The notes under the pieces were generated by a model, which was given only the letters and a program-made list of their open reading frames with translations, made no database searches and was not told where the DNA came from. Below are positions 11,901 to 54,273 of a stretch of DNA of 64,000 nt, one piece after another; position 1 is the stretch's first letter; every line of letters starts with the position of its first letter. Made by a program: the position numbers and the translations under genes. Source of the DNA: a candidate division FCPU426 bacterium (GTDB lineage: Bacteria; Oederibacteriota; Muellerivitia; Muellerivitales; Muellerivitaceae); assembly GCA_963719085.1 (NCBI GenBank), contig CAVRAL010000004.1, positions 992,001 through 1,056,000 on the forward strand, read 5' to 3'.

Positions 11901-12633
11901 CACCTCGACGGCGACCGCTCTACCCACCTCGACCTTGACGCCCTTGCCCACGGTGAGCCTGCAGTTGAATACGTCGTCTTCCTCGGCGGATGCGGGGCAA
12001 AGCTATAGCTATACCTGGGAGATTACGGTGACAGGAAGTTCGCCGCAGAACGGGACGCTGACCCAAAGCCTGCCGGCGGGAGTGACGGTGACGGGATTCT
12101 CCGGGTCTTCGGGGGTGGTGAATGGAAACCAAATCACGTGGAACCTGAACAACCTGCCGGTGGGAGTGACTCAATTGCAGGTGAATGTGGAGATTGACGG
12201 TTCGGTGGCGGGAGGGACGGAGCTTTCAAGCCAAGGGACGCTGAGCTATACGGGAGGCTCGGCCTCGTCCAACAGCGCCTCGGTGAGCGTGGTGGCTTTG
12301 ACCTCAACGCCCACCTCGACGCCGACCTTGACGTTTACGCCGACGCCGGAGCCTATAGGGGGAGTGCCGGTGTTGTACCCGAACCCGGTGAGCGGCCCGG
12401 GCCCGGTGAACATCCAATTGCCGACCTATCCGGGGACGAGCAAGGTGACGGTGCAAGTGTTCACGACGGCGTTTAGGATGGTGAACGAATTCTCGGTGAC
12501 CCAGGCGGGGGGAAGCGTGGTGTCCCTGCCCTTGACGGACCGGAACAACCGGCCCTTGGCGAACGGGCTTTATTACGTGCTGGTCAACTCGCCGGCGGGT
12601 AAATCGATTCTCAAACTGCTGATCCTGCGCTGA
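8998..12633 (+). CDS. Secreted GH74 xyloglucanase + Thr/Pro linker + DUF11-like Ig domain + CTD
   Basis: [52 protein letters not shown] and BNR repeats. Start placed at ATG 8998 (or in-frame TTG 8983) ahead of the signal peptide. Confidence 0.92.
11430..12614 (+). repeat. Shared 3' tail, copy 1 (GH74)
   Basis: 1185 bp matching 14534-15718 with about 5 mismatches by eye. The part from 11649 also matches the two GH30 tails. Confidence 0.95.
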
Positions 12634-12880
12634 GGTCTGTTTAGAACTCAGCACGCCAAGGCTTGTGTCTCATCTTGAAGATTCGGCACAAGCGGCGCTG
12701 AGGCACAAGCCGAAGCGCAAGGGTTGGTCATGCCAATTCCGAATGGGAATTGGCTCATCCTGCGCTGAGGTCTGTTTAGAACTCAGCACGGCAAAGCTTA
12801 TGCCTCGGCATAGCCAGCGCTGACCGTTGTATCGGTCAGCACGGCAAGATATGTCTCCTTTTGAAAATTCGACATAGGTA
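12627..12880 (+). repeat. Array of 4 hairpin units delimited by GCGCTGA
   Basis: GCGCTGA at 12627 (includes the GH74 stop), 12695, 12762 and 12817, with inverted repeats inside each unit. Confidence 0.9.
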
Positions 12881-12897
12881 GTTTTAAGCCTGTTTGT

Positions 12898-12929
12898 AAT
12901 TGACTTTTATTCCAAAAAAGTTGACTTTT
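12898..12929. promoter_or_regulatory. Candidate AraC-type site upstream of GH5
   Basis: 12898-12914 is the reverse complement of TGGAATAAAAGTCAATT (16/17 match to 41024-41040). TTGACTTTT occurs at 12900 and 12921, 21 bp apart. Confidence 0.4.
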
Positions 12930-13076
12930 TTTATGCCGGATAAGTCTGTACGTTAAAGCGCCATATTTTAACGGTTCAAATTTCCTCTGAAAAATTAGGT
13001 GTTTTTCCCTCTATATACTGATTGTTGGTAGACTTAGCTCATCGTCATCCATATCGGCTGAAACCGAAGGGGATTT

Positions 13077-15737
13077 ATGTCGTTTTTTGCCCATAACCAA
13101 AAATCGTTTTTTGCCGCCAAACCGTTGCTGAGCGGGCTCCTTTTTTTGGCCATGATGGTTTTTGGCTTTTCAACCGCTTTCGCGCTTCCGCCCCAATTAA
13201 AAGTTCAAGGCAATGAATTGGTCACCGCCAGCGGCGGTTGTACGGTTCGCTTGACCGGCGTCAATGTGGATTCCACCGAATGGGACGCCGCGGGTGAGTA
13301 TCCGTCCGGGGGGAGCTTCATGACCCAGGTACAGGAAGCCGTCCAATATTGGAATGTCAATTTGATCCGTGTGGCCATCGACCAGGATTGGTGGGACGGA
13401 TTCGCCCAAAGCTCCCGGGGCGCCACCAGTCAGGCGAATTATCAAGCCATGATTGATTCGGTCGTCGCCTACTGTAATACCAACAATATCTATTGTGACT
13501 TGGACCTGCATTGGTCCGGGGACGGAACCACGGGATCGGCCATCCAGCAATATTCCATGCCCGATGACAACAGCGTGACCTTTTGGACCAGTATGGCCGC
13601 GCGTTACGCCAACAACCCTTCCGTTTTATTCGATCTTTTCAATGAGCCTTTCACCAATTCCTGGACCGTCTGGCTCAATGGGGGGACGACCAGCGAGGGG
13701 TTCCATACGCCGGGGTTTCAGTCTTTGCTGAATACGATACGCAATACTTCCAGCGGCGGGGGCGCCTATGCCAGCGGCACAAAGGCGGAAAATGTCTGCA
13801 TCGTCGGCGGTCAACAGTATTCTTATTACTACGTGGGCATGAGTCCGGTGGTGGATGTGGCGGGCGGCAACGGGGTGGTCTATTCGGCGCATATCTATAA
13901 CAACAAAGGCACCAACAATGCCACCGGCTGGCAGACCAACATTGATCCGGCGCTCACTTATGGTCCGGTACTCGTTGAGGAATTCGGGAACTCGAACGCC
14001 GAAACCGACAATGGAGCCTTCGTGAATACTTTGTTGCCTTGGATTAACGGCACAAACGACAAGAATTATGTTTACAGCGCCATGGCCTGGGATCTGGATC
14101 TTTCGGCGGGCCCGTCTTTGATTACCACATGGTCCTCAACCCTTTCGGCGCCGGTTTCCACGGGAACCACCGGTTGGGTATTAACCAACTTTGAAGGGCA
14201 ACAGATTTACGCTTGGTTGAAGGGGATAACTTATCCGACTTGTTCCTCGGGGCCCACCGCCACGCCGACCGTGGCCTTTACTAAAACTTTTACATCCACC
14301 ATGACCTTGACCCCAACCCAAACTCCGACGGCCACGGCTACCCGGACGCCGACTTTAACGCCCACTGCCACCCGGACCGCGACGGTCACCCCAACAGCGA
14401 CCGCCACGATTGTTTTGACGGCTACCCCAACGAAGACCGCTTCTCCCACAACCACTGCGACGCCAACCCAAACCGCCACGAAGACAGCGACTTTGACGCC
14501 AACGTTTACGATGACCCCAACACCGACCCACACCTTGACGGCAACCACGACCCGCACTCCGACGATGACCGCGACGCCGACGATGACGTTGACGCCGTCG
14601 CAGACCACAACGCCGGTAGCGAGCGTTACCAATACCTATACGCCGACCGTGACAGCGACTCCCTCCGTGACCTCAACTAGGACCGCCTCGCCTACGGCTA
14701 CGGCGTCGCCTACGGCCACACTTTCCGCGACCTCGACGGCGACTCGAACCCAGAGCGCGACGCCTTCCACGACCAAAACGCCGACGGTGACGACGACGCC
14801 GACGGTGACCTTGACGCCCCAATTTACCTTTACGGTGACTTTGTCTTTCACGCCCACCCCATCGACCACCTGGACCCTGTCGCCCACGGCGACCGCGACC
14901 CCTACGGCCACCTCCACCAAGACGGCGACTTCCACCGCGACCGCCACCTTTACCCCGACCCGCACCATGACGCCGCCTTTTACCGCCACTCCGACGCCTA
15001 CCAGCACCTCGACGGCGACCGCTCTACCCACCTCGACCTTGACGCCCTTGCCCACGGTGAGCCTGCAGTTGAATACGTCGTCTTCCTCGGCGGACGCGGG
15101 GCAAAGCTATAGCTATACCTGGGAGATTACGGTGACAGGAAGTTCGCCGCAGAACGGGACGCTGACCCAAAGCCTGCCGGCGGGAGTGACGGTGACGGGA
15201 TTCTCCGGGTCTTCGGGGGTGGTGAATGGAAACCAAATCACGTGGAACCTGAACAACCTGCCGGTGGGAGTGACTCAATTGCAGGTGAATGTGGAGATTG
15301 ACGGTTCGGTGGCGGGAGGGACGGAGCTTTCAAGCCAAGGGACGCTGAGCTATACGGGAGGCTCGGCCTCGTCCAACAGCGCCTCGGTGAGTGTGGTGGC
15401 TTTGACCTCAACGCCCACCTCGACGCCGACCTTGACGTTTACGCCGACGCCGGAGCCTATAGGGGGAGTGCCGGTGTTGTACCCGAACCCGGTGAGCGGC
15501 CCGGGCCCGGTGAACATCCAATTGCCGACCTATCCGGGGACGAGCAAGGTGACGGTGCAAGTGTTCACGACGGCGTTTAGGATGGTGAACGAATTCTCGG
15601 TGACCCAAGCGGGGGGAAGCGTGGTGTCCCTGCCCTTGACGGACCGGAACAACCGGCCCTTGGCGAACGGGCTTTATTACGTGCTGGTCAACTCGCCGGC
15701 GGGTAAATCGATTCTCAAGCTTTTAATACTTAGGTAA
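13077..15737 (+). CDS. Secreted GH5 glycoside hydrolase + Thr/Pro linker + DUF11-like domain + CTD
   Basis: Signal peptide and clan-A motifs NLIRV, LDLHW, FDLFNEP (acid/base), YSAHIY, VEEFG (nucleophile). Confidence 0.92.
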   Translation: MSFFAHNQKSFFAAKPLLSGLLFLAMMVFGFSTAFALPPQLKVQGNELVTASGGCTVRLTGVNVDSTEWDAAGEYPSGGSFMTQVQEAVQYWNVNLIRVAIDQDWWDGFAQSSRGATSQANYQAMIDSVVAYCNTNNIYCDLDLHWSGDGTTGSAIQQYSMPDDNSVTFWTSMAARYANNPSVLFDLFNEPFTNSWTVWLNGGTTSEGFHTPGFQSLLNTIRNTSSGGGAYASGTKAENVCIVGGQQYSYYYVGMSPVVDVAGGNGVVYSAHIYNNKGTNNATGWQTNIDPALTYGPVLVEEFGNSNAETDNGAFVNTLLPWINGTNDKNYVYSAMAWDLDLSAGPSLITTWSSTLSAPVSTGTTGWVLTNFEGQQIYAWLKGITYPTCSSGPTATPTVAFTKTFTSTMTLTPTQTPTATATRTPTLTPTATRTATVTPTATATIVLTATPTKTASPTTTATPTQTATKTATLTPTFTMTPTPTHTLTATTTRTPTMTATPTMTLTPSQTTTPVASVTNTYTPTVTATPSVTSTRTASPTATASPTATLSATSTATRTQSATPSTTKTPTVTTTPTVTLTPQFTFTVTLSFTPTPSTTWTLSPTATATPTATSTKTATSTATATFTPTRTMTPPFTATPTPTSTSTATALPTSTLTPLPTVSLQLNTSSSSADAGQSYSYTWEITVTGSSPQNGTLTQSLPAGVTVTGFSGSSGVVNGNQITWNLNNLPVGVTQLQVNVEIDGSVAGGTELSSQGTLSYTGGSASSNSASVSVVALTSTPTSTPTLTFTPTPEPIGGVPVLYPNPVSGPGPVNIQLPTYPGTSKVTVQVFTTAFRMVNEFSVTQAGGSVVSLPLTDRNNRPLANGLYYVLVNSPAGKSILKLLILR
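14534..15718 (+). repeat. Shared 3' tail, copy 2 (GH5)
   Basis: Near-identical to 11430-12614. Diverges only in the last ~19 nt, which still encode KLLILR*. Confidence 0.95.
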
Positions 15738-15756
15738 CGGTTGTCAGTTAATAAAT

Positions 15757-15794
15757 AAAGGCCGGCCCCATTAAGGGTCGGTCTTTTTTATTTT
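15757..15794. terminator. Probable bidirectional intrinsic terminator
   Basis: AAAGGCCGGCCC-CATTAA-GGGTCGGTCTTT stem-loop flanked by A and T tracts, between convergent genes. Confidence 0.75.
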
Positions 15795-15797
15795 GGG

Positions 15798-21197: not shown

Positions 21198-21300
21198 TCT
21201 AAATCTTCAAGCCATTCTAAGTCTTTTTAAACTGCGGCTTTAAAAACTTCGCGGCTTAGGCCCATTTCAAAAGCCCTTTATTAACGATATCCAAGCAAAA

Positions 21301-21320
21301 AAACTTTATCGAAACTTTAT
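21301..21320. promoter_or_regulatory. 11-bp-period direct repeat AAACTTTAT, candidate OmpR-family site in divergent promoter region
   Basis: AAACTTTAT at 21301 and 21312. Similar CTTTA-N6-CTTTA at 8811, and inverted at 30796. Confidence 0.3.
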
Positions 21321-21493
21321 GGGGGAGGGGGATGCCGAGCTTAGTCTTTTAAGCCGGGTCGGTTCGATTAAAGAAGCCGTAAAGAGTGCTTTGGGTGGCT
21401 GGGCAAAAAAGTCCACGCTGTTATGATCCGCCTTAAGTGGTTGACGCCGCTTGAAATTTATTTTCTTCCATCGGGAAGCTTTGAGGAAATCTT

Positions 21494-24949: not shown

Positions 24950-25014
24950 AAATGAAATTTGGCCGGGCTTAAACGGAAGCGCGGGTTTGAAAACCGGCAA
25001 GAGGAGGCTCGAAA

Positions 25015-36202: not shown

Positions 36203-38965
36203 ATGAAGACGACGAAAACCACAATTTATTTCCTCTTATATACCGCTCTGCTGGGCGCCTCCGGGGCATGGGCCAGTACGGTCACGGTCACCGCCGGGAC
36301 GACTTACCAGACCATCTCGGGTTTCGGCGCGGCCAGCGCGCTGAACGCTTATCAGGTCTTCAATAACATCGCCACAATCCAGAATACTCTTTGGGCGGAC
36401 GACTCCAGCCTACCCCCGGCGTCCCAGGTCAACGGTAATGTGGGCCTTTCCATTCTTCGGATCGCCATCGATGATTCGGGCACCACGGGTAATTGGGACG
36501 GGGGTAAGGAGGTTTCCGTGGCCGTTGACGCTTTGAAGGTCAACCCCAACCTGAGGATTTTCGCCAGCGAATGGAGCCCTCCGGCCGCCTGGAAAAACAA
36601 TAACAATAAGAACGGCAACAACACCGGCAATGACAACGCCAACCCGGGCACCAACACCAACCAGATCAACCACGCGGACTGGTCCAATTACGCCACCTAT
36701 CAAACCAATTTCGTGAAGGCCTGCCAAACCACCTACGGCTTCACCCCCTACGCCGTCTCAGTTCAAAATGAGCCGGATTACGATACCAGCTACGATTCCT
36801 GCCTTTGGTCGCCGTCGGATTTCGACACCTATATTAAGACCTACTTGGGGCCCGATCTCACTGCCGCGGGGTTCAACACCATCGTCATGATGCCGGAGTC
36901 TTTCGCGGACAACTTGAATCTGGCCGCTACCACCATGGGAGACACGGGCGCGGCGAGTTTCGTGAAGGTTATCGGCGCGCACCTTTACGGCGGAGGGCCC
37001 AATACGGTTCCGGCTTCCTACTCGACCACCGCCGGCCACGCGGTGGAGAGCTGGGAAACGGAGATATCCGATTTCGCGGCCAATGATTCCAGCATCACCA
37101 GCGGTTTGAAATACGCCAACCAGATACACAGTTGCATCGTGGACCATAATTTTAACGCCTATAACTATTGGTGGATCCTGAACATCAATACTGATAACGA
37201 AGGGCTTTACGGCGCCAGCAACTCCACCACCCCCACCAAGCGCCTTTACGCGCTCGGCAATTTCAGCAAGTTCATCCGCCCGGGTTTCACCCGTATCGCC
37301 GCCACGGAAGCCCCTTCGGCCGGGGTTTCGGTTTCCGCCTACTATAGCTCTACCGCGGGCAAAGTCGTGGTGGTGGCGATCAACAATAATAATTCGGCGC
37401 AGAGCGTCACCTTCAATCTCAGCGGTTTGAACGTCTCGACCATCTATCCCTGGATCACGGACAGCACTCGAAACTTAGTCCAGCAGGCATCCGTGGCCGT
37501 GTCCGCGAACAACTTTGTCTATTCCTTGCCAGTGTCCAGCGTGTCCAGTTTTGTAGGGGCGGTGACCAGCGGTAGCCCCACGGCGACCTCCTCGCCTACG
37601 GCTTCGGCGACTTCAACTCCGACCAAAACGGCGACGCCCACCGCCTCGGCGACGAAGACGCCGACGGTTACCCCGACTTTAACCCCTACGCCCACAATGA
37701 CCGCGACCTTGACGCTTACCCCGACTAAAACAACCACCGCGACGTTGACCCCAACTTCGACGAAGACGGCGACCTTAACGGCGACCCCGACCGCCACCCA
37801 GACCTTCCAATTCACGCCCACGATTACGTCGACCCCGACCGTGACCTCGACTCAAACTGAAACCTTGACTCCTTCGATCACCTCGACCTCAACCGCCACC
37901 CATACGCCGGTCTTCACCGCAACACCGTCTTTTACCAAAACACCTACCTTGACCCCAACACAAACCTCAACGCCCACCGTGAGCGCGACGCCTTCCACGA
38001 CCAAAACGCCGACGGTGACGACGACGCCGACGGTGACCTTGACGCCCCAATTTACCTTTACGGTGACTTTGTCTTTCACGCCCACCCCATCGACCACCTG
38101 GACCCTGTCGCCCACGGCGACCGCGACCCCTACGGCCACCTCCACCAAGACGGCGACTTCCACCGCGACCGCCACCTTTACTCCGACCCGCACCGTGACG
38201 CCGCCTTTTACCGCTACCGCGACGCCTACCAGCACCTCGACGGCGACCGCTCTACCCACCTCGACCTTGACGCCCTTGCCCACGGTGAGCCTGCAGTTGA
38301 ATACGTCGTCTTCCTCGGCGGATGCGGGGCAAAGCTATAGCTATACCTGGGAGATTACGGTGACAGGAAGTTCGCCGCAGAACGGGACCCTGACCCAAAG
38401 CCTGCCGGCGGGAGTGACGGTGACGGGATTCTCCGGGTCTTCGGGGGTGGTGAATGGAAACCAAATCACGTGGAACCTGAACAACCTGCCGGTGGGAGTG
38501 ACTCAATTGCAGGTGAATGTGGAGATTGACGGTTCGGTGGCGGGAGGGACGGAGCTTTCAAGCCAAGGGACGCTGAGCTATACGGGAGGCTCGGCCTCGT
38601 CCAACAGCGCCTCGGTGAGTGTGGTGGCTTTGACCTCAACGCCCACCTCGACGCCGACCTTGACGTTTACGCCGACGCCGGAGCCTATAGGGGGAGTGCC
38701 GGTGTTGTACCCGAACCCGGTGAGCGGCCCGGGCCCGGTGAACATCCAATTGCCGACCTATCCGGGGACGAGCAAGGTGACGGTGCAAGTGTTCACGACG
38801 GCGTTTAGGATGGTGAACGAATTCTCGGTGACCCAAGCGGGGGGAAGCGTGGTGTCCCTGCCCTTGACGGACCGGAACAACCGGCCCTTGGCGAACGGGC
38901 TTTATTACGTGCTGGTCAACTCGCCGGCGGGTAAATCGATTCTCAAGCTGCTGATCCTGCGCTGA
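36203..38965 (+). CDS. Secreted GH30 (xylanase-like) + Thr/Pro linker + DUF11-like domain + CTD
   Basis: YQTISGFG, WSPPAAWK, SVQNEPDY, AHLYGG, WETE, GNFSKFIRPG. Confidence 0.92.
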   Translation: MKTTKTTIYFLLYTALLGASGAWASTVTVTAGTTYQTISGFGAASALNAYQVFNNIATIQNTLWADDSSLPPASQVNGNVGLSILRIAIDDSGTTGNWDGGKEVSVAVDALKVNPNLRIFASEWSPPAAWKNNNNKNGNNTGNDNANPGTNTNQINHADWSNYATYQTNFVKACQTTYGFTPYAVSVQNEPDYDTSYDSCLWSPSDFDTYIKTYLGPDLTAAGFNTIVMMPESFADNLNLAATTMGDTGAASFVKVIGAHLYGGGPNTVPASYSTTAGHAVESWETEISDFAANDSSITSGLKYANQIHSCIVDHNFNAYNYWWILNINTDNEGLYGASNSTTPTKRLYALGNFSKFIRPGFTRIAATEAPSAGVSVSAYYSSTAGKVVVVAINNNNSAQSVTFNLSGLNVSTIYPWITDSTRNLVQQASVAVSANNFVYSLPVSSVSSFVGAVTSGSPTATSSPTASATSTPTKTATPTASATKTPTVTPTLTPTPTMTATLTLTPTKTTTATLTPTSTKTATLTATPTATQTFQFTPTITSTPTVTSTQTETLTPSITSTSTATHTPVFTATPSFTKTPTLTPTQTSTPTVSATPSTTKTPTVTTTPTVTLTPQFTFTVTLSFTPTPSTTWTLSPTATATPTATSTKTATSTATATFTPTRTVTPPFTATATPTSTSTATALPTSTLTPLPTVSLQLNTSSSSADAGQSYSYTWEITVTGSSPQNGTLTQSLPAGVTVTGFSGSSGVVNGNQITWNLNNLPVGVTQLQVNVEIDGSVAGGTELSSQGTLSYTGGSASSNSASVSVVALTSTPTSTPTLTFTPTPEPIGGVPVLYPNPVSGPGPVNIQLPTYPGTSKVTVQVFTTAFRMVNEFSVTQAGGSVVSLPLTDRNNRPLANGLYYVLVNSPAGKSILKLLILR
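37640..38965 (+). repeat. Shared 3' tail, copy 3 (first GH30)
   Basis: 1326 bp matching 43198-44523; one difference seen (AAG/AAA near the end). Confidence 0.95.
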
Positions 38966-39106
38966 GTTCTGTTTAGAACTCAGTAGGTCAAATCGCATGC
39001 CTCGGCTTGAGACCTCGGCATAGCCAGCGCTGACCGTTGTATCGGTCAGCACGGCAAAGCTGATGTCTCGGCTTGAGGCCTCGACATAGCCAGCATTGAT
39101 CGTTGT
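38959..39106 (+). repeat. Array of 2 hairpin units plus a degenerate third start
   Basis: GCGCTGA at 38959 (includes stop) and 39027; GCATTGATCGTTGT at 39093. Confidence 0.9.
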
Positions 39107-39166
39107 GCCACCGCCCTCCTCGTCGCCAAAAAGCGCTTGGCGATTTCCCGGATTCCTGGTTAATCT

Positions 39167-40984: not shown

Positions 40985-41023
40985 ACGAACAACAATTCGA
41001 TTTTAACCGGTTTGCTTTCGATA

Positions 41024-41040
41024 TGAAATAAAAGTCAATT
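41024..41040 (+). promoter_or_regulatory. Candidate AraC-type site TGAAATAAAAGTCAATT
   Basis: Matches 36043-36059 and the reverse complement of 12898-12914. Confidence 0.45.
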
Positions 41041-41208
41041 CGCTTGTCGTTTTAAGACCTATGAGTTTTCCGCGGGTCGCCCGTCCGGTCCGAAACGAAG
41101 GTATAGTTTTGGGGCTGAGCCATTTAAGCGTCTTTTTTCGCCCGAATAAAAACGTTTTTGGATCAGTTAAAAACCGGTTGACGCCGGAATCGGACTAGGA
41201 CTGAATAA

Positions 41209-44200
41209 ATGGGTTCCTTGGAAAAAAGAATTTTGTTTTGGGGGGCTGTTTTTTTTCTCGCCGTTCCCTCGCTTTGGGCGGGAACCGCCACCATCGACGC
41301 CACCACCACGGACCAATATATCCGAGGCTTCGGGGCCTGCAGCGCCTGGCACGAAAGCACTTACCCGACCCAGCTGGCGACCTGGTATTGGGACTCCACC
41401 GGCATGACCGGCAACAATCCGAACGGCATTGGTCTTTCCATGCTGCGCTGCCATATTCCCTATACCAATACCACCACGAGCGTTTCAGACCCGGGGGAAA
41501 CCGCGGTCATGAAGCAAGCCATCGGCCTGGGGGTCACCCAGGTGTGGTGCACCGAATGGGCGCCGCCCAACAACGACCGGGTTTCCGGGTCGACCTGGGG
41601 CAGTTCCAACAATAACTTCCTCGGCGCGGCCAGCGGGGCGCCCAACGCGAATGACACTGATTACGCCAATTATCTTGTCAATTACATCAAATACGCCAAT
41701 TCCCAAATTTCCAGCACCGGGGTCCAGATCATGGCCGTCTCCCCGCAAAACGAGCCCGATTGGAATCCGACTTATGAAAGCAATGAGTGGACCGCGGGCC
41801 AGTTCGATGTTTTCGTCGGGGCCCTTCATTCGGCCCTTCAGGCCGCGGGACTTTCCACCAAGATTATGATTCCGGAAAGCTTCGCCGACAACAAGGCCCT
41901 GGCGGCCGGCGCGATGGATGACGCGACCAACGCGCCCTATGTCGGGGTCATCGGCAACCATCTTTACGGGTTGAACGGAGCCACGCCTTATTCCCTCGCC
42001 GGCGCCGGTTTCACCCACTTGACCAACCAGGAAAGTTGGGAAACCGAAATGTCGGACGTGAGCGGCGCGGCCAACGACACCTCCATTACCTCGGGCCTTC
42101 AGGTGGCGTCGTGGGTGCAACAGTGCATCGTGGACGCGGGCATGAACGCCTATCATCACTGGTGGCTGTATCCAGCCAGCGGCAGCACCAATGAGTCTCT
42201 CATCGGCTCGGACAACGCCTCCACTAAAAAACTTTGGTGCCTGGGTAACTGGAGCCGATTTGTGCGCCCCGGCTATTACCGAATGGGCGCGACGGTTTCC
42301 CCCTCGGCGGGGGTGTCCTTGTCGGCCTTTAAAAGCGATTCCAGTTCCGCCCCGGCTTCCTTCGTGATCGTGGCCATCAACAAGAATACATCGACCACCT
42401 CCACCACCTTTAATTTGAACGGGATCAGCGCCACTTCGGTGACGCCTTGGATCACCGACGCCAACAATAATCTGACCCGGCAGACCGCGGTGGCCGTCTC
42501 GGGAAATTCTTTTACCTATAGTTTGAACGCCCAAAGCGTGATTTCCTTCGTGGGCGCCGTCACGGGCGGGGGCGGACCGACTTACACGCCCACCGTGACG
42601 CCCACGGCAACCCGGACCCCGATCCCGGGCGCCTATTGCCTGGTGGATGATTTTGAGGACGACAACACGACCAACAACTGGGGGGGGACTTGGTCCACCT
42701 ACGCGGGCGCCAACAGCACGCTCACCGCCTCGGTCACGGCGGGAGGATCGCCGTCTTCCCCGAACTATTCCATCGGCATCGCGGGTACGGTTAATGATTA
42801 TGGAGGACTCAACACGTCGTTGAACTCCGGGGGAACCACGGTGGACCTCTCGGCTTATTCGGGCGTGGCTTTCATGGTCAAGGGCAATGGGAGTACCTAT
42901 TGGTTCCAAATCGCCAGTGCCCCCGTGACTTCAGGCGACAATTACGGCGTCAGTTTCACCGCGCCGGCGGCTTGGACGCCCGTGACGGTGATGTTTAACC
43001 AGGTGGCCCAACGCGGTTTTGGTGCCGGGGAACCCTTTGATCTCACCCAAATCAACGCCCTTCAATGGGGCGCCGCGGCGAACGGAGCCTTAAGTTTCCA
43101 AATTGACGACGTGAAACTCTTGGGCGCCTTTTGCCCCGGCGGGACGCCTACGATGACGGCCACCTTTACGCGGACATCTACCTTGACCGCAACTCCGACC
43201 GCCTCGGCGACGAAGACGCCGACGGTTACCCCGACTTTAACCCCTACGCCCACAATGACCGCGACCTTGACGCTTACCCCGACTAAAACAACCACCGCGA
43301 CGTTGACCCCAACTTCGACGAAGACGGCGACCTTAACGGCGACCCCGACCGCCACCCAGACCTTCCAATTCACGCCCACGATTACGTCGACCCCGACCGT
43401 GACCTCGACTCAAACTGAAACCTTGACTCCTTCGATCACCTCGACCTCAACCGCCACCCATACGCCGGTCTTCACCGCAACACCGTCTTTTACCAAAACA
43501 CCTACCTTGACCCCAACACAAACCTCAACGCCCACCGTGAGCGCGACGCCTTCCACGACCAAAACGCCGACGGTGACGACGACGCCGACGGTGACCTTGA
43601 CGCCCCAATTTACCTTTACGGTGACTTTGTCTTTCACGCCCACCCCATCGACCACCTGGACCCTGTCGCCCACGGCGACCGCGACCCCTACGGCCACCTC
43701 CACCAAGACGGCGACTTCCACCGCGACCGCCACCTTTACTCCGACCCGCACCGTGACGCCGCCTTTTACCGCTACCGCGACGCCTACCAGCACCTCGACG
43801 GCGACCGCTCTACCCACCTCGACCTTGACGCCCTTGCCCACGGTGAGCCTGCAGTTGAATACGTCGTCTTCCTCGGCGGATGCGGGGCAAAGCTATAGCT
43901 ATACCTGGGAGATTACGGTGACAGGAAGTTCGCCGCAGAACGGGACCCTGACCCAAAGCCTGCCGGCGGGAGTGACGGTGACGGGATTCTCCGGGTCTTC
44001 GGGGGTGGTGAATGGAAACCAAATCACGTGGAACCTGAACAACCTGCCGGTGGGAGTGACTCAATTGCAGGTGAATGTGGAGATTGACGGTTCGGTGGCG
44101 GGAGGGACGGAGCTTTCAAGCCAAGGGACGCTGAGCTATACGGGAGGCTCGGCCTCGTCCAACAGCGCCTCGGTGAGTGTGGTGGCTTTGACCTCAACGC

Positions 44201-44523
44201 CCACCTCGACGCCGACCTTGACGTTTACGCCGACGCCGGAGCCTATAGGGGGAGTGCCGGTGTTGTACCCGAACCCGGTGAGCGGCCCGGGCCCGGTGAA
44301 CATCCAATTGCCGACCTATCCGGGGACGAGCAAGGTGACGGTGCAAGTGTTCACGACGGCGTTTAGGATGGTGAACGAATTCTCGGTGACCCAAGCGGGG
44401 GGAAGCGTGGTGTCCCTGCCCTTGACGGACCGGAACAACCGGCCCTTGGCGAACGGGCTTTATTACGTGCTGGTCAACTCGCCGGCGGGTAAATCGATTC
44501 TCAAACTGCTGATCCTGCGCTGA
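41209..44523 (+). CDS. Secreted GH30 + CBM11/CIA30-like jelly-roll + Thr/Pro linker + DUF11-like domain + CTD
   Basis: QYIRGFG, SPQNEPDW, WETE, GNWSRFVRPG. Second module 'LVDDFED..W..DLSAYSGVAFMVKGNG..IDDVKL'. Confidence 0.9.
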   Translation: MGSLEKRILFWGAVFFLAVPSLWAGTATIDATTTDQYIRGFGACSAWHESTYPTQLATWYWDSTGMTGNNPNGIGLSMLRCHIPYTNTTTSVSDPGETAVMKQAIGLGVTQVWCTEWAPPNNDRVSGSTWGSSNNNFLGAASGAPNANDTDYANYLVNYIKYANSQISSTGVQIMAVSPQNEPDWNPTYESNEWTAGQFDVFVGALHSALQAAGLSTKIMIPESFADNKALAAGAMDDATNAPYVGVIGNHLYGLNGATPYSLAGAGFTHLTNQESWETEMSDVSGAANDTSITSGLQVASWVQQCIVDAGMNAYHHWWLYPASGSTNESLIGSDNASTKKLWCLGNWSRFVRPGYYRMGATVSPSAGVSLSAFKSDSSSAPASFVIVAINKNTSTTSTTFNLNGISATSVTPWITDANNNLTRQTAVAVSGNSFTYSLNAQSVISFVGAVTGGGGPTYTPTVTPTATRTPIPGAYCLVDDFEDDNTTNNWGGTWSTYAGANSTLTASVTAGGSPSSPNYSIGIAGTVNDYGGLNTSLNSGGTTVDLSAYSGVAFMVKGNGSTYWFQIASAPVTSGDNYGVSFTAPAAWTPVTVMFNQVAQRGFGAGEPFDLTQINALQWGAAANGALSFQIDDVKLLGAFCPGGTPTMTATFTRTSTLTATPTASATKTPTVTPTLTPTPTMTATLTLTPTKTTTATLTPTSTKTATLTATPTATQTFQFTPTITSTPTVTSTQTETLTPSITSTSTATHTPVFTATPSFTKTPTLTPTQTSTPTVSATPSTTKTPTVTTTPTVTLTPQFTFTVTLSFTPTPSTTWTLSPTATATPTATSTKTATSTATATFTPTRTVTPPFTATATPTSTSTATALPTSTLTPLPTVSLQLNTSSSSADAGQSYSYTWEITVTGSSPQNGTLTQSLPAGVTVTGFSGSSGVVNGNQITWNLNNLPVGVTQLQVNVEIDGSVAGGTELSSQGTLSYTGGSASSNSASVSVVALTSTPTSTPTLTFTPTPEPIGGVPVLYPNPVSGPGPVNIQLPTYPGTSKVTVQVFTTAFRMVNEFSVTQAGGSVVSLPLTDRNNRPLANGLYYVLVNSPAGKSILKLLILR
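43198..44523 (+). repeat. Shared 3' tail, copy 4 (second GH30)
   Basis: 1326 bp matching 37640-38965. Confidence 0.95.
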
Positions 44524-44712
44524 GGCCACAAGCCGAAGCGCAAGGGTTGGTCATGCCAATTCCGAATGGGAATTGGCTCATCCTGCGCTGAGGTCTGTTT
44601 AGAACTCAGTACGTCAAATCGCATGCCTCGGCATAGCCAGCGCTGACCGTTGTATCGGTCAGCACGGCAAAGCTGATGCCTCGGCTTGAGGCCTCGACAT
44701 AGCCAGCGTTAA
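44517..44712 (+). repeat. Array of 3 hairpin units
   Basis: GCGCTGA at 44517 (includes stop), 44585 and 44640; closed by GCGTTAA at 44706. Confidence 0.9.
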
Positions 44713-44784
44713 GGCCGCAATCCGAGTTTTATTTTTTTGAAGTTGCTGAGGGGGACCCTTGAAGGGGTCAGGAAGTTAAATCGG

Positions 44785-46887
44785 ATGAAAAATTTGGGAT
44801 TAAAAAATTTCTTCTTCATTCGGGCCCTGGGGTTCGTTTGTTTTGGTTTGGGTTTAGGGATGGCTTCAGCAGCTGGGGCCGCGGACAAGACCTATTGCGT
44901 GCAGGTGAATTATTCCGCCGTTCCGACCTTGGTGAACTACCGCAAAATCACCCTCTTAGTCAATGTGGGCACCTGCGCTTCCGTCGCGGTTACGGCGGAC
45001 GGGGCGGCGGTCTCCGCCACCTATAATTCCACCACGGGTATGGCGCTCTTCACGACCACCGGCTCTTCCATCCTGGTCATGGCGGTTAATTGGACAGCCG
45101 GTGGAACCGGCGCGGCCACCAAGGCGACACTCTATAACAATTATCATTGGGCCTATTCACTCACCTTTGATGACAATCGCCTATCCCAATACGACTATGG
45201 CAAGCCAGTTTTGGACTCCTTCGGCTGGAGGGCGGCGGAAGCGGTGGTAGGTTCCTGGGCCAATGGGGGCGGGGCATCGGGAAGCGGAAGCTATTTCATG
45301 AACTGGACCTGTCTGCAGGCCTTGAGGGCGGCGGGATGGGATATGTTGGACCATTCCTACGACCATCCCAACCCCCTGACCTGCAACGGCACGGCCACCG
45401 ATATCGTGCCTGAGTTGACTGAGAACCAGCCGCTTTTGCTCAAATATTTTCCCGGATACAACGTGACTCAAATGGTTTTCCCTTATGAGTCTTCCGGAGC
45501 CAATACCTGCGCGGGTTATCCCACGGCTTACCTTCTCTCGGCGGAGTGCGGGGGAGGATCCTATAATTTCGTGGATACGGCCCTGCCGTTCCAAGTCCAA
45601 CGGGGAGGCCTTTTCGGGACCGATGACACGGCTTGGAAATCGCTGGCGGCGGCGGCGGCCGGTAACAGCCGGCCCACTTGGCTCGTGGAATATACCCACA
45701 GTGTCTCGCAGGGCAGCGGGGCGGCAGCTGATCAGTACAGCACCAACCAGGCGACCCTGACGGATTTGCTGACCTATCTCAATAACAATTTCGGGACGCC
45801 CGGCAACAAGAGCATGTGGTTCGCGCCGGCGGGAGAAGTTCGGGATTACATCTTTACCCGGGACAACGCGGTCGTCACGACCTGCACCGCGGCGCCGACC
45901 CCCACCGCCACTTTGACTTTGTCTCCCACCCGGACCTTTAGTCCGACGCCGACCAAGACCGCCACGCCTACGGCGACTCGAACCGCGTCTCCCACCGCGA
46001 CCTCTTCGGCGACTTCGACGGCCACCAAGACGGTGAGCTTTACCCCCTCGGCCACGTCTACTCTCACGGTGACCAAAACAGCAACGGGTACTTCTACACC
46101 CACCGCCTCGCCTACGATTTTGGCGACGAAGACACCGACATCAACTCCCGCCCCGTCGTTGACTTCGACCCTGACTTCCATGCCTACGGCAACTTCGACG
46201 GAAACGAAAACCTTTACTCTAACCGCCACTTGCTCCTCGACGGCCAGCCCGACTCCTTCGGTCACGCCGACGGCGACCGCTTCGACGTCTTTCACGGCTA
46301 CCACGACTGCTACCCCTCCATTTACCTCAACCGTTTCTTCCACGCCGACCTTCACCCCGACGAAGACTCTGACAGTCACCTGGACTCCGACGCCTACGGC
46401 TTCCCCCACATTTACTTCCACCCATACGGCCTTGCCCACGGTAACTTTTAGCCCCACCTTTACCGTGACGCTTACTCCAACACCTGTGCCGCCCACCTTA
46501 ACTTTCACCCCAACACCGACCATGACGGAAACCGCCTCCGCAACTGCCTCGGCGTCACCCACAAAAACACTGACGGCTTCCCCGACGAGAACGCCGACAC
46601 CGATTCCGGTCCGAAATCCAGTCCTCTATCCCAATCCTACCAATGGCCTCCAACCGGTTCAGATCCGATTGCCCAATTACCCGGGGGTTGGAACCGTCAC
46701 GGTTGAGGTTTTCACGCCGGCTTTCCGGAAAGTGAACGCCGAAGGTTTTCCGAACCAGCCAGGTGGAAGCGATGTTCCCTTGCCGCTCACGGATCGAAAC
46801 GGAGTGTCCCTCGCCAACGGAATTTACTATGTGCTGGTCCAAAGCCCCGCGGGCCGGTCCGTTCTTAAATTGTTGATCCTGCGCTGA
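44785..46887 (+). CDS. Secreted NodB/CE4-like polysaccharide deacetylase + Thr/Pro linker + CTD
   Basis: SLTFDD, DHSYDH, VFPY and EYTH motifs. About 90 aa of unrecognised beta-rich sequence precedes the domain. Start placed at ATG 44785 (ORF track gives 44737). Confidence 0.8.
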   Translation: MKNLGLKNFFFIRALGFVCFGLGLGMASAAGAADKTYCVQVNYSAVPTLVNYRKITLLVNVGTCASVAVTADGAAVSATYNSTTGMALFTTTGSSILVMAVNWTAGGTGAATKATLYNNYHWAYSLTFDDNRLSQYDYGKPVLDSFGWRAAEAVVGSWANGGGASGSGSYFMNWTCLQALRAAGWDMLDHSYDHPNPLTCNGTATDIVPELTENQPLLLKYFPGYNVTQMVFPYESSGANTCAGYPTAYLLSAECGGGSYNFVDTALPFQVQRGGLFGTDDTAWKSLAAAAAGNSRPTWLVEYTHSVSQGSGAAADQYSTNQATLTDLLTYLNNNFGTPGNKSMWFAPAGEVRDYIFTRDNAVVTTCTAAPTPTATLTLSPTRTFSPTPTKTATPTATRTASPTATSSATSTATKTVSFTPSATSTLTVTKTATGTSTPTASPTILATKTPTSTPAPSLTSTLTSMPTATSTETKTFTLTATCSSTASPTPSVTPTATASTSFTATTTATPPFTSTVSSTPTFTPTKTLTVTWTPTPTASPTFTSTHTALPTVTFSPTFTVTLTPTPVPPTLTFTPTPTMTETASATASASPTKTLTASPTRTPTPIPVRNPVLYPNPTNGLQPVQIRLPNYPGVGTVTVEVFTPAFRKVNAEGFPNQPGGSDVPLPLTDRNGVSLANGIYYVLVQSPAGRSVLKLLILR

Positions 46888-47018
46888 CCGTTGTATCGGT
46901 CAGCACGGCAAAGCTTATGCCTCGGCTTGAGGCCTCAACATAGCCAGCGCTGAGCGTTGTATCGGTCAGCACGGCAAAGCCGTGGCTCAGCTTGAAACCT
47001 CGACACAGGCAGCGCTAA
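46881..47018 (+). repeat. Array of 2 hairpin units
   Basis: GCGCTGA at 46881 (includes stop) and 46947; closed by GCGCTAA at 47012. Confidence 0.9.
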
Positions 47019-47157
47019 TTTTTTGCCGGAATCGGCTGATCTTGGCACGTTTTCCTTCATTCAGTGAAGTCTTCTTTTGGCTTTGGCCCTTCCAGTCCTA
47101 TAATTCCCTCGGTTTTAAATTTCCTGGAATATTTCGGCCCGAAAGAGGACTAAGTCA

Positions 47158-47739
47158 TTGGGAGATCCTTTGGACGAGCGGCAATTGGTTCGTCGGGTTT
47201 TAGAGGGGGACGAACGGGCCCGCATGGAGTTTTACCGGGCCTATGAACAAAAGCTTTATAGCTTTTGCGTCTATACCCTGGGACACAACGATCCTGAAAT
47301 TGAGGACATCCTTCAGGAAGTCTTCCTGGTGGCTTTTGAAAAGCTGCGGGGGTTTGAATTTAGGTCCAGCCTGGATACCTGGCTGACCCAGATTTGCATC
47401 CACAAATGCTACCGCTATTTCCGCAAGAGATCGCGCTTGGTCAGCCAAGCGGACGAGGATTTGGAAAAACTTTTACACTCCCGGGCCTTGGAAAAGGCCG
47501 ATCAGGCCGAGCGGAGCCGGGAACAAGAAGCGCGGTTGAAAATATTCCGCCAAGCCATGGACCGGATGGGGGAGCCCTGCCGGAAGATTTTGGAACTGAG
47601 AACGAGAACCGGCGCCAGCTATATCGAAATCGGGCGTCAAATGAAGATTCCCATTGGGACGGTGATGTCCCGCTTGGCGCGCTGTACGCAGACCTTGAAG
47701 GGCGAAGTGGAACGGTTGTTAAAAGAGGGGCTAAAATGA
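47158..47739 (+). CDS. ECF RNA polymerase sigma factor
   Basis: Region 2 'EDILQEVFL..F..RSSLDTWLTQI' and region 4 'SYIEIG..IPIGTVMSRLAR'. Confidence 0.93.
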   Translation: MGDPLDERQLVRRVLEGDERARMEFYRAYEQKLYSFCVYTLGHNDPEIEDILQEVFLVAFEKLRGFEFRSSLDTWLTQICIHKCYRYFRKRSRLVSQADEDLEKLLHSRALEKADQAERSREQEARLKIFRQAMDRMGEPCRKILELRTRTGASYIEIGRQMKIPIGTVMSRLARCTQTLKGEVERLLKEGLK

Positions 47740-48389: not shown

Positions 48390-48446
48390 AACTTGTCCCG
48401 CGTGCAACCGGCTTTCCTGAGTGATATGATTTTCAGGGAGGCTTGC

Positions 48447-50327: not shown

Positions 50328-50329
50328 AA

Positions 50330-51670: not shown

Positions 51671-51807
51671 AACAATCGGTTAAACGGTTCTCCTTAGACT
51701 TCCCTCTAAAAAACTTAAAATGGAATAAAGCCGCCTCCCGGTGAATCTAAGCCTTTGGGACAACTTGTCCTGAACCGCTTTGAAGAGCGGGATCCCCGAG
51801 GTGGAAA

Positions 51808-54207
51808 ATGCCGGAATCGATCATCTTTTTGTTTTTACGGTTTAAATCGTTTTTAAAAAGCTTCCGCCACATTTCCTTGCCTTTAGCCGGACTTTTTTTT
51901 CTCCCCGCCGCGACCGTCTTCGGCCAAACCCTGATCATTACCGCCGCTCCTTATAACGCCACCACGGGCAGCGCCGACAACGCCGCCGCGATCCAAGCCG
52001 CCATCAACGCCGTGGGCAGCGGCGGCACGGTTGAGGTTCCCGCGGGTAATTTTTTAAGCGGTCCCGTGACCCTTAAAAGCAACATGACCTTTCAGCTTTC
52101 GGCCGGAGCCACCCTTCAAATGACGGCCATGGGGACCTTTCCTGTAAATATGGATTTCATTTACGGTTCCAAACTCTCCAATATTACGATCAACGGCTCC
52201 GGCGTCATGGATGGGCAGGGATTGGCCTGGTGGAATTATTTCAACGGCGGTGGAACGGATAACCGCCCGCCCGCCATGATTGAGCTCACCGGTTGCACGG
52301 GCGTGACGGTTTCCGGCATTTCGGTCATCAATTCGCCCAAATTTCATGTTCAGTTTCTGGGCAACGGCGCCAACATCCTGGCCTCGGGCCTGACCATCAC
52401 CGCTCCCTGGCCCTCGCCCAATACGGACGGCATCGACCTGCGGGGAACCAATGTCACGATTCAAAACTGCTACATCAGCGACGGGGACGATGTGATTCAA
52501 ATCGGCGGCTCCAACGCCTGCATGGGAATTACGGTGCAAGGCTGCACCTTCGGAACCGGACACGGTCTTTCCATCGGCAGCATCACCTCAGGCGGCGTAA
52601 GCAACGTGCTCGTCAACAATTGCGTTTTTAACGGCACCCAATATGGCCTCCGGCTGAAATCCAACAATACCGAAGGCGGAATTACCTCCAACGTCACTTA
52701 TTCCAACATCACCATGACCAATATTTTGGTGAACCCTATCTTGATGTACAGCTATTACCCGGATGTTCCCGCCAATCCCACCACGGATACGGGTTCGGCC
52801 GCCAACAGCACCACGCCTTATTGGCAAAATATTAAATTTGAAAATGTGTCGGCGGCCCAAACCGCCACCGGGTCGGCCAACGTGGGCATCCTTTGGGGAT
52901 TGCCCCAAGCGCCGGTTTCCAATGTGCTTTTTGACGCCTGCACCATCACGGGTTCCAAAATTATGGATGTGTTCAACACCCGGGGCGTGACGTTTGATTG
53001 CAACTGCCTGATCAATGGCAAGGCTCCCTCAAACTCCGCGGCCGTTACGACTTATAACGCGGCCATGGCGGGGGCTGACAACGTGCTTTTTGCCGCTTGC
53101 GGCCCCACGCCGACCTTTACAGCGACTTCGGTCCTAGCCACCCCGACCCGCACCGCCACGCCCTTACCGACCGCTTCCGCGACGCGCACGGCGACGCCAA
53201 CCGCGACCCGGACAGCCTCTCCGACCGCTTCCCCTACGAGGACGATGACCGCTACCGCGACTGCCTCGGCGACAGCGACGCGTACCGCGACGGCCCCCGC
53301 CACTCCAACCCTTACGGCCACGGTTCTTTCGACGGTTTCCGCTACGCCGACCCGCACCGCGACGGCAACCTCTTCCGCGACCGCTACAGCGAGCATGACC
53401 CGGACGGCGACCTTGGTTTTTACAAGAACTTCGACACCGACCCTGGCCATGACTTCTACACCGACCATGACCCGAACCTCGACGCCGTCTCTTACAGCGA
53501 CTCCACTCTCGACTCAAACCCCCACGGGCACTAGTACGCCATCCTTCACCGCGACCAAGACGGCCACCCCGGCGTTCACTTCGACGTCAACGTCCACCGC
53601 TTCGAACACGTCCACGCCGACCGCGACCCCTACGTCAACACCAACCTCGGTATTCACCCCAACCGCGACTCCCTCCAGGACGGCGACCTTGATCCCGACC
53701 GCCTCGGCGTCGGCCACGGCTTCGTCAACGGCCACGCCTTCCGCGACTTTAACCCCCATCCCAACCGCTTCTTTTACGGACACACCGACGAACTCTTTTA
53801 CACCCACACTCACCTTGACGGTAACGCCGGTGCCGCCCACTCCCACCCCGAGCGACACGGTCACCTTGACCCCGGTGATTGTGCCCACATCAACCGACAC
53901 CCCGACCTTCGGGCCGGGAGCGCCGCCTATTTCCAAACCGGTGCCTTTCCCCAACCCGACCCAGGGGGGGACGGTTCAAATTTATTTTGTCTTGGCCGCC
54001 GCGTCCTCGGATGTGAGGATCCATGTTTTCACCACGGCCTTTAGAAAAGTAATCACGGCCGACTTAGGCCCGCTTCCCGCCGGCGCCAGCACACCCACCC
54101 TTTCCCTGACGGACGCACAAGGCCGGCCTTTGGCCAATGGTCTTTACTATGTCGAAGTCTCTGATTCTCAAGGGCATTCCATCGGCAAGCTGATGGTTTT
54201 GCGCTGA
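51808..54207 (+). CDS. Secreted GH28 polygalacturonase + Thr/Pro linker + CTD
   Basis: All four GH28 motifs are present: NTDG, GDD, GHG, RLK. Confidence 0.93.
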   Translation: MPESIIFLFLRFKSFLKSFRHISLPLAGLFFLPAATVFGQTLIITAAPYNATTGSADNAAAIQAAINAVGSGGTVEVPAGNFLSGPVTLKSNMTFQLSAGATLQMTAMGTFPVNMDFIYGSKLSNITINGSGVMDGQGLAWWNYFNGGGTDNRPPAMIELTGCTGVTVSGISVINSPKFHVQFLGNGANILASGLTITAPWPSPNTDGIDLRGTNVTIQNCYISDGDDVIQIGGSNACMGITVQGCTFGTGHGLSIGSITSGGVSNVLVNNCVFNGTQYGLRLKSNNTEGGITSNVTYSNITMTNILVNPILMYSYYPDVPANPTTDTGSAANSTTPYWQNIKFENVSAAQTATGSANVGILWGLPQAPVSNVLFDACTITGSKIMDVFNTRGVTFDCNCLINGKAPSNSAAVTTYNAAMAGADNVLFAACGPTPTFTATSVLATPTRTATPLPTASATRTATPTATRTASPTASPTRTMTATATASATATRTATAPATPTLTATVLSTVSATPTRTATATSSATATASMTRTATLVFTRTSTPTLAMTSTPTMTRTSTPSLTATPLSTQTPTGTSTPSFTATKTATPAFTSTSTSTASNTSTPTATPTSTPTSVFTPTATPSRTATLIPTASASATASSTATPSATLTPIPTASFTDTPTNSFTPTLTLTVTPVPPTPTPSDTVTLTPVIVPTSTDTPTFGPGAPPISKPVPFPNPTQGGTVQIYFVLAAASSDVRIHVFTTAFRKVITADLGPLPAGASTPTLSLTDAQGRPLANGLYYVEVSDSQGHSIGKLMVLR

Positions 54208-54273
54208 GGCGGATATGCCTCCGCGCGCTCAAAGCTTGCGCCTCAACTTAGCGTCTTGGCCTAGAAGCGCTGA
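54201..54273 (+). repeat. Single divergent 66-bp hairpin unit bounded by GCGCTGA
   Basis: GCGCTGA at 54201 (includes stop) and 54267. Hairpin GCGCTGAGGC-GGATAT-GCCTCCGCGC followed by AAAGCTT..GCCTC as in the other units. Confidence 0.6.

Follow-up and report, generated by a model that had tools for sequence, protein, structure and literature searches.

By which process do rows of short hairpin-forming units come to be stacked at the very ends of genes? This question is raised by a stretch of 64,000 nucleotides (positions 992,001 to 1,056,000 of contig CAVRAL010000004.1, assembly GCA_963719085.1), called the window throughout, which stems from the 3.04-Mb genome (99% complete) of an uncultured soil bacterium, our host genome. 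Reading of the window and excision of the repeats gave 12 units of 55-68 nt, each opening with GCGCTGA and located directly behind one of five glycosidase genes, g1 to g5. These genes encode a CTD, i.e., the C-terminal domain of large secreted glycosidase-type proteins that resembles those of the type IX secretion system (T9SS) and FlgD-Ig. The repeat element behind the units, for which we use the name E, is dispersed within one bacterial family, occurs between genes as well as in frame inside them, and forms tandem arrays; at the CTD genes it supplies the ending ...CTG CGC TGA, i.e., the last codons together with the stop. In our judgement, the arrays are probably stacks of a family-specific repeat resembling the repetitive extragenic palindromes (REP) and bacterial interspersed mosaic elements (BIME) of other bacteria, and E is proposed as a new REP/BIME-like family. 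Site-specific integration with polar growth, which had been suggested in an original prediction made from these letters, is not demonstrated.

The first unit of every array overlaps the stop codon of its CTD gene (12633, 38965, 44523, 46887 and 54207 for g1 to g5, respectively), and units in the window overlap reading frames by the last 8 nt at most. When the sites were re-read, most of the layout given in the original prediction was recovered. One to four units stand directly behind each of the five genes ending with GCGCTGA, and the distances from one GCGCTGA to the next are 68/67/55 nt (g1), 68 nt (g2), 68/55 nt (g3), 66 nt (g4) and 66 nt (g5), in line with the predicted periods of 65-68 or 55 bp; the 55-nt units lack a 13-nt stretch between CCTCGGC direct repeats. 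The nested order holds as well, with units A-B behind g2, C-A-B behind g3 and A'-C-A-B' behind g1, and so do the two array-free genes that had been pointed out: GH5 (stop 15737), which shares the tail of g1 and ends with CTT AGG TAA, and GH8 (stop 62023), which ends with GCGCTAA. By pattern, 42 CTD-like tails were recognised in the genome. An array is present behind all five that end with GCGCTGA and behind none of the remaining 37, two of which end with GCGCTAA. Same-strand pairs of GCGCTGA spaced 55-68 nt apart occur nine times in the whole genome, eight of them in the window. Behind the last unit of each array stands a degenerate boundary (GGTAG, GCATTGA, GCGTTAA, GCGCTAA and GCGCTGA for g1 to g5, respectively), which we infer to be the relic of the gene's own old end.

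According to the alignments, one architecture fits all unit types. E measures about 62-66 nt and consists of yCT, a hairpin X, a linker AAGnTTTGG and a hairpin V that is closed by GTGC...GC. Hairpin X is closed by a stem of 5 bp, which is followed by a tandem G.A, an inner stem of 3 bp and a loop of the form CWCMA. In unit C, X reads GCGCU-GA-GGC-CACAA-GCC-GA-AGCGC and is followed by the linker AAGGGTTGG and by V as the second hairpin; B, A, A' and D, when reverse-complemented, show this plan too, with the X core GAGGCCTCAAGCCGA, the linker (C)AGCTTTG and then GTGC-arm-loop-arm-GCGC. Unit C is thus E in forward orientation and A, A', B and D are its reverse complement, so that the arrays do not form one polarised series of like-oriented units. 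The boundary word has a dual origin: unit C contributes it with the 5' arm of X, and A, B and D with the reversed 3' arm of V. A model R1, built on hairpin X and the linker, matches 10 of the 12 units at an E-value of at most 0.01 and 11 at most 0.02, two of them forward and nine reverse, and misses only B'. The resulting orientations are - + - - behind g1 and + - - behind g3.

Covariation supports hairpin X. In 22 copies, 96% of the cells of its pairing are paired and seven of eight pairs show compensatory changes, a value that none of 500 shuffles reached. The X stems of 67 distinct copies from other genomes comprise 500 Watson-Crick pairs, 21 G.T, 4 A.C and 11 other combinations, and the tandem GA/GA is retained in 59 of these copies. 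Near-invariant among the 67 are also unpaired positions, namely the CT before X (C in 65 copies, T in 62), the CWCMA loop and the linker positions G..TTG..TGCC, and unpaired bases are strongly conserved across 17 genera. Measured from the T in front of X to the last position of V, the length is 61-70 nt for 49 of 57 copies, with a mode of 62. With z-scores between -2.7 and -4.5, the units A, A', B and C fold well; the folding of unit D does not exceed that of shuffled sequence, and in four of five unit types the forward strand is the better-folding one. Terminal inverted repeats were not found in E, the ends of which (TGCGCC... and ...CACCGG) are unrelated. Rfam 15 yields no match in the window at the gathering score and none at an E-value of at most 1 across six E-bearing loci.

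As far as our searches reach, E is confined to the bacterial family of the host. R1 detects it in 30 of 31 genomes of this family, G018 being the exception, with 1 to at least 62 copies per genome, and in none of the 68 genomes that represent 22 further families of this phylum. When 185,579 species genomes were scanned exactly for the strict X word, six loci were returned, all in uncultured metagenome-assembled genomes of the same family. This, together with the length distribution, agrees well with the predicted small, gene-less, dispersed element of fixed size. The family copies mostly open with CCTGTGCCGAG, without a stop codon, and their usual start can be written CCTGTGCC-GAG; the form of V that embeds a stop was seen in 3 of the 31 genomes. 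Copies stand singly or in tandem, in either orientation, at gene ends or in frame within genes, and at 9 of 29 loci (2.1 expected) the stop of an open reading frame (ORF) of at least 200 aa lies within 20 nt of E. Tandem arrays elsewhere are made of near-identical copies in one orientation, with periods of 66, 67, 69, 72 and 99 nt. Several of them lie inside long ORFs, including that of a ParB-domain protein, and the periods of the in-frame arrays in relatives, 66 and 72 nt, are multiples of three. In the host genome, R1 gives 15 matches at an E-value of at most 5, and at least two copies are located beyond the window, at C1:430154 and at the end of secA, both without a GCGCTRA boundary; these two make up, with 10 of the window units, the 12 host copies counted in the R1 census. 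A blastn-short search of the host genome with the 12 units found nothing outside the window except one match of 17 nt.

Filled and empty versions of the same gene bear on how copies of E arise. In a gene for a UvrD/PD-(D/E)XK helicase-nuclease (domains UvrD_C and PDDEXK), the genomes G045 and G021 carry a reverse copy of 69 nt (23 codons), inserted in frame between copies of GACCGC(A), and the same site is uninterrupted in G002, G010 and the host. Both arms of V are inside the inserted DNA, for which reason the idea that the V arms are copied from the target was rejected. The gene (L016/L056, about 1500-1570; L068 1501-1955) holds a further copy of E, forward and in frame, in the linker between UvrD_C and PD-(D/E)XK of G002, G010 and G045; G021 has a forward match at the same spacing. 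G045 and G021 each contain two copies of opposite orientation about 410 nt apart within this gene.

Longer flank repeats are found at other loci. On the 3' side of secA in G001, three copies of E follow each other with a period of 99 nt, each then followed by the last 40-49 nt of secA, and the secA end of the host (C1 about 1170026-1170070) has one degenerate copy bracketed by the duplicated last codons and stop of the gene. The copy at C1:430154 has a flank repeat of about 45 nt. Behind CTD genes of G041, G011 and G005, a decayed copy of the gene end follows E (CTTCGCTAA, CTGCGGTAA and GCGCTGA, respectively), and the layout in G005, GCGCTAA...66 nt...GCGCTGA, is that of the window. Each insertion at a gene end is thus bracketed by a repeat of that end with the stop rebuilt, which bears out the predicted regeneration of the target. 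Overall, the flank repeats measure 6-7, 7-16 and 40-49 nt. Such a spread of lengths, 6-7 to about 49 nt, is not what a site-specific recombinase or a classical transposase would be expected to leave.

Two of these loci offer minor observations in their own right. Among the inner secA repeats of G001 (L101 1380-1900), a small hairpin after the stop is altered by compensatory substitutions. In C1:430060-430300, E is located at the 5' end of a gene of 404 aa, and the direct repeat of about 45 nt includes the first codons of this gene; genes with a C-terminal sequence like that of the 404-aa gene have E copies on both sides in G042 (L083).

At CTD gene ends, orthologues within the genus differ in both directions as to the presence of E. 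The gene g1 is filled in the host, and its orthologue in G001 is array-free and ends with CGC TAG AGTTTTATT, to which the sequence behind the host array, GGTAG-TTTTAAG, can be aligned. Conversely, an array-bearing CTD gene of G001 has a host orthologue that ends with CTG CGG TAA and is free of E. From these reciprocal cases it follows that, in this genus, arrays appear and disappear behind CTD genes. Since the E-free orthologues end with CGC TAG or CGG TAA, the word GCGCTGA may have arrived with the element instead of having been its target. The G001 orthologue of GH8 ends with TTG CGC TGA and is free of E. No further filled and empty pairs were found in same-genus genomes.

In one other comparison, the genomes G012 and G022, which are filed as different species and are elsewhere 70-85% alike, share one block of 100% identity and more than 10 kb with the same E copies (L086 versus G022:C55; L105/L106 versus G012). 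This block could be due to a recent island transfer or to cross-assembly. Within G012:C14 (L086 4170-5310) there is an insertion of 1.14 kb that is absent at the same site of G022, three identical copies of which occur elsewhere in G022; it looks like an active insertion sequence.

The genes in front of the arrays have a history of their own. In g1 (11440-12633), GH5 (14545-15737), g2 (37650-38965) and g3 (43205-44523), the C-terminal 1-1.3 kb form a module with an identity of at least 99%. The genes g2 and g3 show one difference in their last 1318 nt, g1 differs from both at about 10 positions in 974 nt, and GH5 matches g1 over 1192 nt save for the last 16 nt, where the last five codons are synonymously recoded. 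Judged by this degree of identity, the module, which comprises linker or carbohydrate-binding module (CBM) plus CTD, appears to have undergone recent gene conversion. The CTD of g4 is only 59% identical to those of g1-g3 over 380 nt, with the last 14 nt identical, but its unit B is 95-97% identical to the B units of g2 and g3, and hence units move independently of the CTD. Given the near-identical long tails and the repeats of 14-34 nt at the unit junctions, gene conversion, unequal exchange and deletion are all possible. The nested order of the units cannot be polarised on this basis, because proximal gain, loss from a longer array and conversion would all yield it.

Among public runs, four soil-metagenome runs of one study and no RNA run were listed for the locus. 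Compared over 38500-47300 of the window, the four gave short contigs that end at the arrays, and no joints or indels. Five variant letters at 44610-44622 agree with the A unit behind g1, a paralogue, and are thus explained by cross-mapping.

As predicted, the window contains no recombinase (28 ORFs scanned). A linked RAYT/HUH, IS110 or tyrosine recombinase gene was not found: the host genome has no Y1/RAYT (PF01797), IS110, TnpB or reverse transcriptase gene, and of its five tyrosine recombinases (PF00589) the one nearest to the window is about 494 kb away. RAYT-like genes of 318 aa (NF047646, PF01797) are present in 22 of the 31 family genomes. In G042, 5 of 20 such genes have E within 3.5 kb, and in G012 4 of 16; in no case does E flank them tightly. 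The two RAYT-like genes that were inspected have inverted repeats of their own, 29 nt and 42 nt in length and unlike E, and in G019 (99% complete) E is present in 52 copies and Y1 is absent. With the host and G019 devoid of Y1 and the inspected genes carrying unlike repeats, RAYT as the mobiliser of E was rejected.

The RAYT-like genes encode tyrosine transposases of about 318 aa with a DnaA-type HTH tail, are enclosed by perfect inverted repeats of 42 nt or 29 nt (L050 3500-4544; L052 2125-3152), and are multi-copy in several genomes of the family, with up to 20 matches. The usual RAYT is a single-copy gene.

How, then, could the arrays have been formed? We propose that E would be copied into places resembling its own end (TGCGCYGA), probably by template switching or recombination at forks stalled by the hairpins, or else by some enzyme, and that the copying would duplicate a variable stretch of the target. 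CTD genes that end with Leu-Arg-stop would mimic the end of E and, by this proposal, collect copies for that reason. The units could then be spread and reordered as the near-identical tails undergo gene conversion and unequal exchange, with the shared GCGCTGA(GG) serving as the junction for exchange.

Several points weigh against an REP/BIME-like reading of the arrays. That arrays go with tails ending in GCGCTGA (5 of 5) and not with others (0 of 37) also fits genuine targeting of this word. All internal boundaries keep GCGCTGA despite its dual origin from X in C and from V in A, B and D, so that our interpretation can account for it only by descent or by homology shared at the junctions. That unpaired bases are strongly conserved from genus to genus suggests a factor that recognises them, and no cognate enzyme for E was found in searches of the window, the host genome and the family genomes. 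Among the filled and empty pairs, the helicase gene with its direct repeat of 6-7 nt is the only one with unambiguous junctions. As to the numbers, the copies behind the pair statistics were picked by R1 itself, so that these figures lean toward the model; the R1 census scored 150 candidates per genome, which makes the copy counts lower bounds; and the ORFs used for the context of E were simple stop-to-stop frames, not annotations.

The course of events put forward in the original prediction, a non-autonomous element that integrates site-specifically, regenerates its target and makes the array grow with polarity, would place integration at GCGCTGA (between CCT and GCGCTGA) and growth on the gene-proximal side, and it would require an unlinked recombinase or guidance by pairing of the TCAGCRC arm with the target. 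It appears unlikely to us, although several findings speak for it. Tails ending with GCGCTGA are filled in five of five cases and others in none of 37, the boundary word is kept in 12 units and in five distal relics, and behind g3 the likeness of the boundary to the live gene end declines with distance (13/14, 9/14 and 7/14 from the gene outward, by reading). The same GCGCTAA...66 nt...GCGCTGA layout recurs in G005, and orthologues differ as filled versus empty. As a general target, however, GCGCTRA did not hold up: most family copies of E lack it, as do at least two host copies, those at C1:430154 and at the secA end, an outcome that the original prediction had itself named as counting against it, and the stop-embedding form of V is restricted to 3 of 31 genomes. 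The G001 orthologue of GH8 ends with TTG CGC TGA and is empty, and GCGCTGA may itself be element-borne, with E-free orthologues ending CGC TAG or CGG TAA. Flank repeats ranging from 6 to 49 nt, in combination with both orientations, argue against site-specific integration, and the host lacks Y1/RAYT, IS110, TnpB and reverse transcriptase, with the nearest of five tyrosine recombinases about 494 kb off. A further reading does without an own site-specific recombinase. E would be self-homing, copied to mimics of TGCGCYGA and recognised by some factor, and the arrays would be ordered in time; we regard this as unlikely. If it were true, CTD genes ending with CTG CGC TGA would be places where E lands by nature, every arrival would restore the final codons together with the stop and displace older units outward, and X would show its invariant unpaired bases because a family-restricted factor recognises them.

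Retention for function is compatible with stacks of an REP/BIME-like repeat. As RNA or DNA, the hairpins at the stop might end or stabilise the transcript or slow down translation termination of the secreted CTD enzymes, in agreement with covarying stems and fixed unpaired bases in 17 genera, with the folding of A, A', B and C (z-scores between -2.7 and -4.5), with T-runs behind the arrays of g3, g4 and g5 (by reading), and with the excess of E at ORF ends (9 of 29 loci versus 2.1 expected); stop-proximal REPs are described as stalling ribosomes in PMC12306157. However, for 10 of the 12 units the strand that folds better, in which G.T pairs and the tandem G.A are formed, is the one antisense to the mRNA, and unit D folds no better than shuffled sequence. 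A terminator scan of 38800-47300 called nine sites, none of them in the arrays. Furthermore, E is also found within ORFs, in either orientation and including degenerate copies, and 37 of 42 CTD genes are E-free, which leaves us with a rather low estimate for this explanation. Far less probable still is an integron-like origin, in which attC-type rows without cassettes (CALIN) would be fed on the gene-proximal side by an integron integrase. The layout alone, with its rows of hairpins, constant boundary and extra proximal units, recalls such a system. The boundaries, by reading ..CCA|GCGCTGA, contain no GTTRRRY core, units occur in both orientations, the same element occurs singly inside genes, and no integrase is found in the window, with the nearest tyrosine recombinase at the distance given above.

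The favoured assignment, an REP/BIME-like repeat, can be measured against the known systems. The REP/BIME elements of Enterobacteria, Pseudomonas and Stenotrophomonas, including the REPINs with RAYT, share with E that they are short structured palindromes mostly at gene 3' ends, that they form mixed-orientation clusters and are reiterated with pieces of their flanks, and that their termini may give the stop of the neighbouring ORF while some copies lie inside ORFs, according to PMC3733652 and PMC2817692. Specifically, PMC3733652 describes that stop codons may be provided by REP termini, that REPs occur within ORFs and that tandem reiteration can include the flanking DNA, and PMC12306157 describes stalling of ribosomes in E. 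coli by REPs within 15 nt of the stop. Like REP, E is a dispersed imperfect palindrome kept by compensatory change (7 of 8 pairs; 30 of 31 genomes). Unlike REP, a single palindrome of 20-40 nt, it has two different hairpins in 62-66 nt, it shows a conserved yCT instead of a GTAG/CGTC head, and it is low in copy number, with about 15 copies in the host and at least 62 at most, compared with more than 100 per genome for REP. In contrast to the REPIN-RAYT system, no RAYT gene flanked by inverted E copies was found. Because of the two-hairpin unit, the missing GTAG/CGTC head, the low copy number and the lack of a cognate RAYT, E is filed with the REP-like kind and outside RAYT-REP proper.

Other families resemble E in single traits. 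Rickettsia palindromic elements (RPEs), mentioned in PMC3733652, are likewise palindromes tolerated in frame in genuine genes. For E, this situation is found in the helicase-nuclease and ParB-domain genes of relatives, not in the window. RPEs belong to an unrelated lineage and, with about 100-150 nt, are longer than E. BOX of pneumococcus and NIME/dRS3 of Neisseria form rows of small modules with a constant short boundary, often behind surface-protein genes, and dRS3 is the integration site for a phage with an IS110-type enzyme. The E arrays are alike in layout by description, and the host has no IS110 gene. The IS200/IS605-derived palindrome-associated transposable elements (PATEs) have in common with E a strand-biased hairpin, a short conserved word on the 5' side and the lack of terminal inverted repeats. 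They differ in that the IS200/IS605 family makes no target duplication, according to PMC2817692, compared with the repeats of 6-49 nt around E, and the host has neither Y1 nor TnpB. A MITE, a miniature transposable element with inverted repeats, would carry such repeats at its termini and a target duplication of constant length; E has neither.

From a biological point of view, a well-defined repeat family with a covarying structure is added to an uncultured soil lineage, along with an unusually clear case of a repeat that supplies the last codons and the stop of secreted-enzyme genes. The locus also shows how a C-terminal module of 1-1.3 kb and its trailing repeats are homogenised among different glycosidase genes, which bears on how secretion tails are shuffled between genes. 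For annotation, the arrays are relevant because gene ends, false "terminators" and assembly breaks fall at them. E lacks a cognate RAYT, and its mode of copying, if found, would inform on the spread of orphan REP-like repeats.

In the following, the single arrays are given with their coordinates in the window. The gene g1 (8827..12633, plus strand) encodes a secreted protein of 1268 aa with the CTD tail ...LKLLILR*, common to g2, g3 and GH5, and its last 8 nt, TGCGCTGA, lie within the first unit. This is unit A' (12627..12694, minus strand, 68 nt), a reverse E with the stop codon inside hairpin V (R1 match 12650-12693, minus, E-value 1.8e-8). It is followed by unit C (12695..12761, plus, 67 nt), a forward E whose 3' end TCATCC is a copy of the TGATCC of the gene (R1 12691-12734, plus, 6.1e-9), by unit A (12762..12816, minus, 55 nt), a reverse E with 13 nt of the X core deleted between the CCTCGGC repeats (R1 12785-12815, minus, 3.5e-4), and by unit B' (12817..12876, minus), a reverse E with a degenerate X half, which escapes R1 and of which the first 31 nt are identical to B. 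GGTAG at 12877..12881 (plus) would be the relic of the old end of g1, as judged from the alignment with its orthologue.

The 920-aa GH30-like enzyme of g2 (36203..38965, plus) has a tail as in g1. Behind it stand unit A in its full length of 68 nt (38959..39026, minus, E reverse; R1 38982-39025, minus, 3.9e-9) and unit B of 66 nt (39027..39092, minus, E reverse; R1 39048-39091, minus, 1.5e-11), and the putative old-end relic is the degenerate boundary GCATTGA (39093..39099, plus). The gene g3 (41209..44523, plus) codes for a GH30/CBM11 enzyme of 1104 aa, again with the tail of g1. Its unit C (44517..44584, plus, 68 nt) is a forward E, bracketed by TGATCC and TCATCC, in which X, GCGCUGAGGCCACAAGCCGAAGCGC, contains the stop (R1 44513-44557, plus, 9.1e-13). 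Unit A (44585..44639, minus, 55 nt, E reverse; R1 44608-44638, minus, 0.018) and unit B (44640..44705, minus, 66 nt, E reverse; R1 44661-44704, minus, 3.2e-11) follow, and GCGTTAA (44706..44712, plus), with a T-run next to it, is the presumable relic.

The polysaccharide deacetylase of g4 (44737..46887, plus, 716 aa) has a diverged CTD, and its direct match to g1-g3 is limited to the last 14 nt. Here, unit B (46881..46946, minus, 66 nt, E reverse; R1 46902-46945, minus, 3.2e-11) is followed by unit B'' (46947..47011, minus, 65 nt, E reverse; R1 46968-47010, minus, 6.1e-9) and by the putative relic GCGCTAA (47012..47018, plus) with TTTTTT next to it. The GH28 enzyme of g5 (51808..54207, plus, 799 aa) has a CTD of its own, and the diverged unit D (54201..54266, minus, 66 nt, E reverse; R1 54222-54266, minus, 7.3e-7) is its only unit; the second GCGCTGA, followed by TTTT (54267..54273, plus), is best read as the old end of g5. 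As a control, GH5 (13077..15737, plus) shares a tail of 1.2 kb with g1 and is free of units; its end is recoded to CTT TTA ATA CTT AGG TAA, with a hairpin and a T-run behind it.

Two further observations concern the neighbourhood. Paralogous AraC-type regulators with PocR/GGDEF-like sensor parts are located just upstream of g2 and g3 (34173-36002 and 39167-40984) and presumably control the adjoining glycosidase genes. At the edge of the polysaccharide-degradation cluster, the window contains a gene for a 1079-aa NB-ARC/TPR (STAND-type) protein (1853-5092).

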